A stretch of DNA of 64,000 bases. Source: Escherichia coli. Its GTDB lineage: Bacteria; Pseudomonadota; Gammaproteobacteria; Enterobacterales; Enterobacteriaceae. The first letter of the stretch is position 1. The number at the start of each line of letters is the position of its first letter. A program made the translations under genes and the position numbers. Positions 17,124-17,304 of the stretch are shown here, in pieces. The notes beneath the pieces are model-generated. The model was not told the DNA's origin, searched no databases, and saw only the letters and a list, made by a program, of their open reading frames with translations. Location of the stretch: NCBI RefSeq assembly GCF_003334815.1, contig NZ_QOWO01000008.1; one strand, written 5' to 3'.

Positions 17124-17304
17124 TTATAAGGGTGGCAAAACTCACCGGGGATGCAAGCGAAACAGGGGAGTCATTGCTTAGATGATGACAGGTAATGGCG
17201 CGGATATCGAATGTTATGCAGACAGAGAAAATCAGCCTGTTCAAATGGCTGTGCGATTCTGGATAGCCCGAAATAGTCAACTTCAGGCTATCCAGAGAGC
17301 GGAA

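Follow-up and report, generated by a model that had tools for sequence, protein, structure and literature searches.

The 64,000-nucleotide stretch of DNA analyzed here, referred to below as the window, is an Escherichia coli K-12-type chromosome segment that carries exoX, ptrB, yebE, yebF, yebG, purT, and eda. Described as Cpx-induced, yebE is an uncharacterized envelope-stress gene. Downstream of yebE, and in the same direction, lies ptrB; the interval between the two genes has no RefSeq annotation and the spacer region is 100% identical to that of K-12 and many other strains. The features of the locus are as follows, in window positions:

15036-17096, minus strand: ptrB, annotated in RefSeq as oligopeptidase B, with its ATG at 17096
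17097-17257, minus strand: untranslated C-rich, G-poor stretch from the main hairpin to the ptrB start, resembling a Rho loading (rut) region
17120-17167, minus strand: block just before ptrB, conserved in Enterobacteriaceae, GTTTCGCTTGCA ... TTTTGCCACCCTTATARG
17168-17304 (approximate), minus strand: segment found only in Escherichia, with ~122 nt extra, carrying the main and weak hairpins
17224-17251, minus strand: weak terminator-like element with a 5-bp stem, CAGCC/GGCUG, and a 9-nt loop (hairpin at 17233-17251), -7.1 kcal/mol
17258-17296, minus strand: main stem-loop of the yebE 3' UTR, with 17 pairs, two of them G-U
17280-17296, 17275-17279, and 17258-17274, minus strand: 5' arm, loop (UGACU), and 3' arm of the main stem-loop, respectively
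17299-17313, minus strand: small stop-codon hairpin, GCGGAAUAAUUCCGC, with the yebE UAA in its loop, -6.5 kcal/mol
17305-17307, minus strand: yebE stop codon, UAA
17305-17964, minus strand: yebE, annotated in RefSeq as a TerB-family protein

A 60-codon open reading frame at 17098-17280 (minus strand) was rejected as a gene, as its coding is not conserved and its frame is interrupted or shifted in two of the other Escherichia loci (L004 and L021). Variants of YebE with 227-230 residues and in-frame insertions are found in some E. coli (L218 and L219), where the spacer is identical to that of K-12.

Structure of the Hairpin Downstream of yebE

The inverted repeat that was singled out in the initial annotation is present, with arms CTGGATAGCC (17259-17268) and GGCTATCCAG (17286-17295) separated by a 17-nt gap. 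It had been described as a perfect repeat of 10 bp, which is correct as to its presence and understates its length, the arms matching over 11 bp (17258-17268 and 17286-17296). The placement given for it, just 3' of yebE and ~160 bp from the start of ptrB, holds, with 8 nt between the stop codon and the hairpin and 161 nt between the hairpin and the ptrB ATG. Dinucleotide shuffles of the window contain on average 0.28 perfect 11-bp repeats with a gap of at most 20 nt, and the repeat is beyond chance expectation.

In RNA of the minus strand, the yebE-sense strand, the arms extend into an unbroken 17-bp stem (UCUGGAUAGCCUGAAGU paired with AUUUCGGGCUAUCCAGA) that is closed by the 5-nt loop UGACU. 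The hairpin folds with -27.0 kcal/mol as minus-strand RNA compared with -19.9 kcal/mol as plus-strand RNA, a preference of 7 kcal/mol for the yebE-sense strand; the plus-strand fold is weaker because the two G-U pairs become C.A mismatches there. The 45-nt window that holds the hairpin has a folding energy of -28.0 kcal/mol, where the mean is -8.4 (sd 3.8), and only one other such window on either strand of the 64 kb is more stable. Folding of 17200-17310 as minus-strand RNA, one of the checks proposed with the initial annotation, gave a z-score of -4.3, and none of 200 shuffled sequences folded as well.

Elsewhere in the window, the most stable local fold is found at 27351-27395 (minus strand), and further perfect inverted repeats of at least 10 bp are located at 993-1020, 3017-3042, 11551-11590, 13635-13670, 20338-20366, and 50072-50101. 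The repeat at 20338-20366 sits between purT and eda, with A and T runs on both sides that give it the look of a bidirectional terminator.

The main hairpin is followed on the yebE-sense strand by AAUCGCACAG, a tail with no U run, as had been noted at the outset. The stem-loop is stable and contains G+C (17 bp, -27 kcal/mol), but the U-rich tract of ~7-8 nt that follows directly 3' of the stem in an intrinsic terminator is lacking, in agreement with the earlier judgment that this is not a canonical terminator. Just downstream, however, is a weak terminator-like element that was absent from the initial annotation. The hairpin of this element, CAGCC-N9-GGCUG (17233-17251), lies 6 nt downstream of the main hairpin and AUUUUCUCU (17224-17232) follows it directly. 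No terminator-like site was called here by a consensus scan, in which the weak hairpin was passed over because its 9-nt loop exceeds the 8-nt maximum. On the other side of the main hairpin, the small stop-codon hairpin has coding sequence as its 5' arm and is less well conserved, with 85% of cells paired. From the main hairpin to the ptrB start (17097-17257), the C/G ratio of the minus strand is 1.7-2.5, as compared with 0.93 for the whole minus strand.

Conservation of the Structure within Escherichia

The stem was compared in 16 E. coli examples drawn from across the identity range and in four other, non-coli Escherichia lineages. A comparative alignment, also among the checks proposed initially, bore out the fold: RNAalifold predicted the same 11-bp core from 12 distinct Escherichia sequences, with 132 of 132 cells paired and none of the 11 core pairs broken in any of them. 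The core is nevertheless not invariant in sequence, as G-C is replaced by U-A in two lineages and by G-U at three pairs, and one U-G pair is the same throughout. When 11 sequences were aligned, 91% of cells paired, compared with 24-46% when the partners were slid by 1-3 columns, and six pairs were changed on both sides compared with 2.0 in shuffles, a control that related sequences can beat without any structure and that here draws on few independent lineages. L021 and L022 have U-A in place of one G-C pair and an upper stem rebuilt with other bases, resulting in a hairpin of 13-14 bp in the same place. The E. whittamii lineage is far more diverged in the rest of the Escherichia-only segment.

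Four stem substitutions were found within E. coli. A C-to-U change in the 3' arm (JJ1887, A22, O2:K2:H1, and others) converts G-C to G-U, and a C-to-U change in the 5' arm (ARS-C301 and D217-5) converts C-G to U-G; a U-to-A change near the base (WP8-S17 and THO-008) produces an A.A mismatch, and a U-to-C change at the loop-closing pair (MS1679 and 14EC020) produces a C.A mismatch. Two of these four are thus C-to-U changes that keep G-U pairing on the yebE-sense strand only. Changes in the loop are also present among E. coli haplotypes. The sense-strand fold is at or below -24 kcal/mol in all haplotypes, whereas the plus-strand fold drops to approximately -18 kcal/mol in the G-U variants. Taken together, the aligned sequences provide good evidence that the structure is conserved, if not overwhelming evidence given the small number of independent lineages.

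The stem of the weak hairpin carries a compensatory change from C-G to U-A in L004, a G-U pair in one variant, and a break in one E. coli haplotype. At the corresponding site, the E. whittamii lineage has a different hairpin, and L021 and L022 have a different hairpin without a U tail.

Distribution of the Hairpin across Genera and Genomes

The yebE-ptrB spacers of 80 loci, obtained in one YebE scan of species-representative genomes, were compared. The spacer is 203-209 nt long in Escherichia sequences (the window, L003, L004, L021, and L022) and 75-93 nt long in Citrobacter, Enterobacter, Kosakonia, Kluyvera, Phytobacter, and most other genera. The segment that carries the main and weak hairpins is restricted to Escherichia, and its extra ~122 nt follow the yebE stop codon and precede the conserved ptrB block, which places the hairpin outside that block. 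The block, of ~48 nt, is kept in ~25 other genera that have no hairpin, in a form common to all genera of GTTTCGCTTGCA ... TTTTGCCACCCTTATAGG, and contains no good spacing of sigma-70 hexamers. In many genera the palindrome CACCCTTATAGGGTG is found inside the block, and in Salmonella enterica subsp. arizonae and diarizonae (L018 and L033) an unrelated insertion of ~125 nt sits between the block and the ptrB start codon.

In most genera, only 12-25 nt separate the yebE stop codon from the block, and these have no stable fold. In Buttiauxella and Cedecea (L043, L048, L055, L063, and L071), the yebE stop codon is overlapped by a canonical intrinsic terminator, GCCGGG-UUAAC-CCCGGC with a U run, and a further four lineages (L034, L038, L077, and L078) carry after yebE stable stem-loops of their own that are unrelated. 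As the hairpins of the different lineages are their own, a gene-end hairpin has been gained at this position several times independently.

The hairpin and its segment were found at a single locus in 5426 of 5426 complete E. coli genomes, even when E-values up to 10 were admitted; a second place returned for each genome most likely reflects a match of the palindrome to its own opposite strand. There was no phage match for the segment, and the five matches to plasmids, in records of 0.4-4.9 Mb, are apparently to chromosomes or large pieces of chromosome that were mislabeled. When metagenomes were scanned for the core pattern of the hairpin, the yield was chance hits and five contigs of E. coli type, with no new species. 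With one locus in each E. coli genome and no phage match, the hairpin has no support for a mobile or repeated origin.

The insertion sequence ISEc46 (IS200/IS605 family, with tnpA and a TnpB-type gene) apparently occupies this spacer in ~400 of the 5426 E. coli genomes, its identity having been confirmed in two split genomes (L002, 1240-3000, and L088) and assumed to be the same for the remaining split matches. The insertion point, between 17181 and 17182, immediately follows TTAG and falls within the loop of a short GTCAT...ATGAC inverted repeat, 76 bp from the main hairpin, with both the hairpin and the ptrB block left intact. A relic of IS200/IS605 end hairpins was considered as the source of the yebE hairpin and rejected, the ISEc46 ends forming CTCGCCC...GGGCGGG hairpins that are unrelated to CTGGATAGCC.

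Published Transcript Ends and the ptrB Promoter

Published coordinates were transferred to the window by subtracting 1,911,743 from the MG1655 coordinate. The curated Term-seq data of PMC7815308, from three growth conditions, contain no 3' end within ~200 nt of the hairpin on either strand, which is a weak negative as these are dominant ends only (~900-1200 per condition). The same study calls no Rho termination region in the yebE-ptrB spacer, where a signal could be hidden by the nearby downstream promoter of ptrB; its nearest minus-strand Rho calls are at 1929742 and 1925038, the former equivalent to window ~17999 (minus strand), just upstream of the yebE start codon. The neighboring gene yebF has a strong Term-seq 3' end at 1929972 (minus strand; PMC7815308), with its flank placed at window 18219-18279 and the end itself at ~18229, a few nucleotides after a REP-like hairpin. 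There are no yebE or ptrB entries in PMC12207403 or PMC6131387. A literature search that paired yebE with terminator or RNA terms found nothing relevant and no mention of the hairpin, and Rfam covariance models gave chance matches only at E-values up to 10, far below the gathering scores.

Genomic SELEX with the RpoS holoenzyme (PMC5493296) places a peak of intensity 6.1 (cut-off 3.0) in the 208-bp yebE-ptrB spacer. By coordinate offset, the peak is near window 17255, at a resolution of 105-300 bp (200-300-bp fragments, with probes every 105 bp) that makes the hairpin and the ptrB-upstream block inseparable. The peak suggests that ptrB has its own promoter, and a 3'-end element for yebE between the two genes would therefore make sense. 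A sigma-32 reading of the ptrB-upstream block was discarded, as ptrB is in the RpoS list of PMC5493296 and not in its RpoH list.

Proposed Function of the yebE Hairpin

The closest framework for the hairpin is provided by Rho-dependent transcripts of E. coli, in which stem-loops bar the way to PNPase and RNase II and the steady-state 3' ends lie directly behind them (Dar and Sorek 2018, PMC6061677). Rho loading sites, with C in excess over G, are found just downstream of such stem-loops, and only 24% of these are REP elements. The yebE hairpin is like them in being a stable stem-loop just after the stop codon, with no U tract, an excess of C over G downstream, and no REP character. It differs in having a longer stem, with fewer imperfections, than the typical stem-loop of this kind, and in belonging to one genus. 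Intrinsic (Rho-independent) terminators also have a stem-loop at the gene end, and the weak hairpin with AUUUUCUCU 6 nt downstream of the main one is reminiscent of them, but the main hairpin is without a U tract and the element that has one is weak (5 bp, 9-nt loop). REP/BIME elements are likewise intergenic hairpins after genes that could stabilize the upstream message, and the yebF end sits after a REP-like hairpin; in contrast to these, the yebE hairpin occupies a single locus per genome, has no REP consensus, and lacks clustered copies, so that the many dispersed consensus copies of that class are not found.

Collectively, these features point to a protective 3' stem-loop of the yebE mRNA, with transcription ending further downstream, a reading to which we give roughly even odds of being correct. 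The stem-loop, from 8 nt after the stop codon in the yebE 3' UTR, would act as a barrier to 3'-to-5' exonucleases and would thereby give the yebE message a stable 3' end. Termination would come further along and could occur at the weak hairpin with its U tract, 6 nt beyond the stem-loop, through the action of Rho on the C-rich stretch, or in both ways, and as a side effect the separate promoter of ptrB might be shielded from read-through. The stabilizing 3' hairpin that was one of the two roles offered in the initial annotation is accordingly the best fit to the sense-strand bias, the compensatory and G-U changes, the missing U tract, and the C-rich tail, while the protective function itself is a deduction from these features and PMC7815308 shows no end here.

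This protective reading is favored because the published Rho-dependent 3' ends of PMC6061677 share with the yebE hairpin the stem-loop close to the coding region, the absence of a U tract, and the C/G bias, because the neighboring yebF has this arrangement in published data, and because other genera have independently gained different hairpins after yebE. The functional claim is weakened in turn by PMC7815308, which gives neither a yebE 3' end nor a Rho region (a weak negative). Also against the protective reading, two E. coli lineages have mismatches in outer or closing pairs (A.A and C.A), most Enterobacteriaceae do without any hairpin here, and the non-coli Escherichia sample consists of four lineages only.

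The hairpin could alternatively be a functionless relic, in which case an ancestor of Escherichia would have acquired the ~122-nt segment in this spacer, with the hairpin kept since then by descent and not by selection. Its restriction to Escherichia, the PMC7815308 Term-seq data without a 3' end here, the mismatches in some lineages, and the small number of independent lineages, for which kinship alone can exceed shuffle controls, are all consistent with such a history. However, the double change from G-C to U-A in two lineages, the rebuilding of the stem top with pairing kept, the 132 of 132 paired core cells, the substitutions that favor the sense strand, and the far greater divergence of the E. 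whittamii lineage elsewhere in the segment argue against it, and we consider a relic unlikely. It is somewhat less likely still that the large hairpin and the weak hairpin with its U tract form a tandem, non-canonical intrinsic terminator or attenuator that sets yebE read-through into ptrB. In favor of such a tandem, the hairpin with AUUUUCUCU is only 6 nt away, ptrB follows in the same direction, and L004 shows compensatory substitution in the small stem. Against it, the small hairpin, with 5 bp, a 9-nt loop, and -7.1 kcal/mol, is weak and went uncalled in the scan; one E. coli haplotype has it broken, and L021 and L022 have another hairpin, lacking a U tail, in its place; and the large hairpin has no U tract and no 3' end in PMC7815308.

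A long and nearly perfect duplex of conserved structure might also serve as a site for RNase III (17-bp duplex) or ProQ, or belong to a 3'-UTR-derived small RNA; yet there is no Rfam match at E-values up to 10, no Hfq-type U tail, and nothing in the searched literature, and nothing sets the stem apart from a plain protective hairpin, which makes a role of this kind improbable. Least probable, and very unlikely, is a palindrome acting in DNA, either as the site of a dimeric ptrB regulator or as part of the ptrB promoter. The repeat is upstream of ptrB and the RpoS holoenzyme binds somewhere in the 208-bp spacer in vitro, but the arms of 11 bp are separated by a 17-bp gap and lie ~90 bp upstream of the ptrB block, and a consensus scan found no sigma-70-like site in 16900-17500. 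Moreover, the block at 17120-17167 exists in ~25 genera without the repeat, which is confined to the Escherichia-only segment upstream, and in E. coli variants that are common (the JJ1887 and ARS-C301 types) the DNA symmetry is lost and the RNA pairing kept. The symmetric half-sites, kept together with a promoter, that are expected of an operator are thus replaced by asymmetric, G-U-type variants in several of the sampled E. coli, and the protein-binding site in the ptrB promoter region that the initial annotation had offered as its other possibility is unsupported.

The hairpin belongs to the yebE-sense transcript and is best filed among gene-end stem-loops that are protective or associated with terminators, as one specific to its genus, and it is an ordinary kind of element. 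A more ambitious possibility, to which we assign a slim chance, is that the 122-nt module as a whole (large hairpin, weak terminator, and C-rich tail) is a regulated attenuator of yebE transcription into ptrB or the source of a stable 3'-UTR RNA; if it were such an attenuator, envelope stress would be linked to oligopeptidase B through the Cpx induction of yebE, in this genus only. Otherwise the finding has little import beyond annotation, to which it adds one defined 3'-UTR element for yebE, and is unlikely to surprise a specialist. It does offer a clean example of a gene-end hairpin gained by one genus, with different hairpins elsewhere at the same spot, and illustrates the fast turnover of 3'-end structures.
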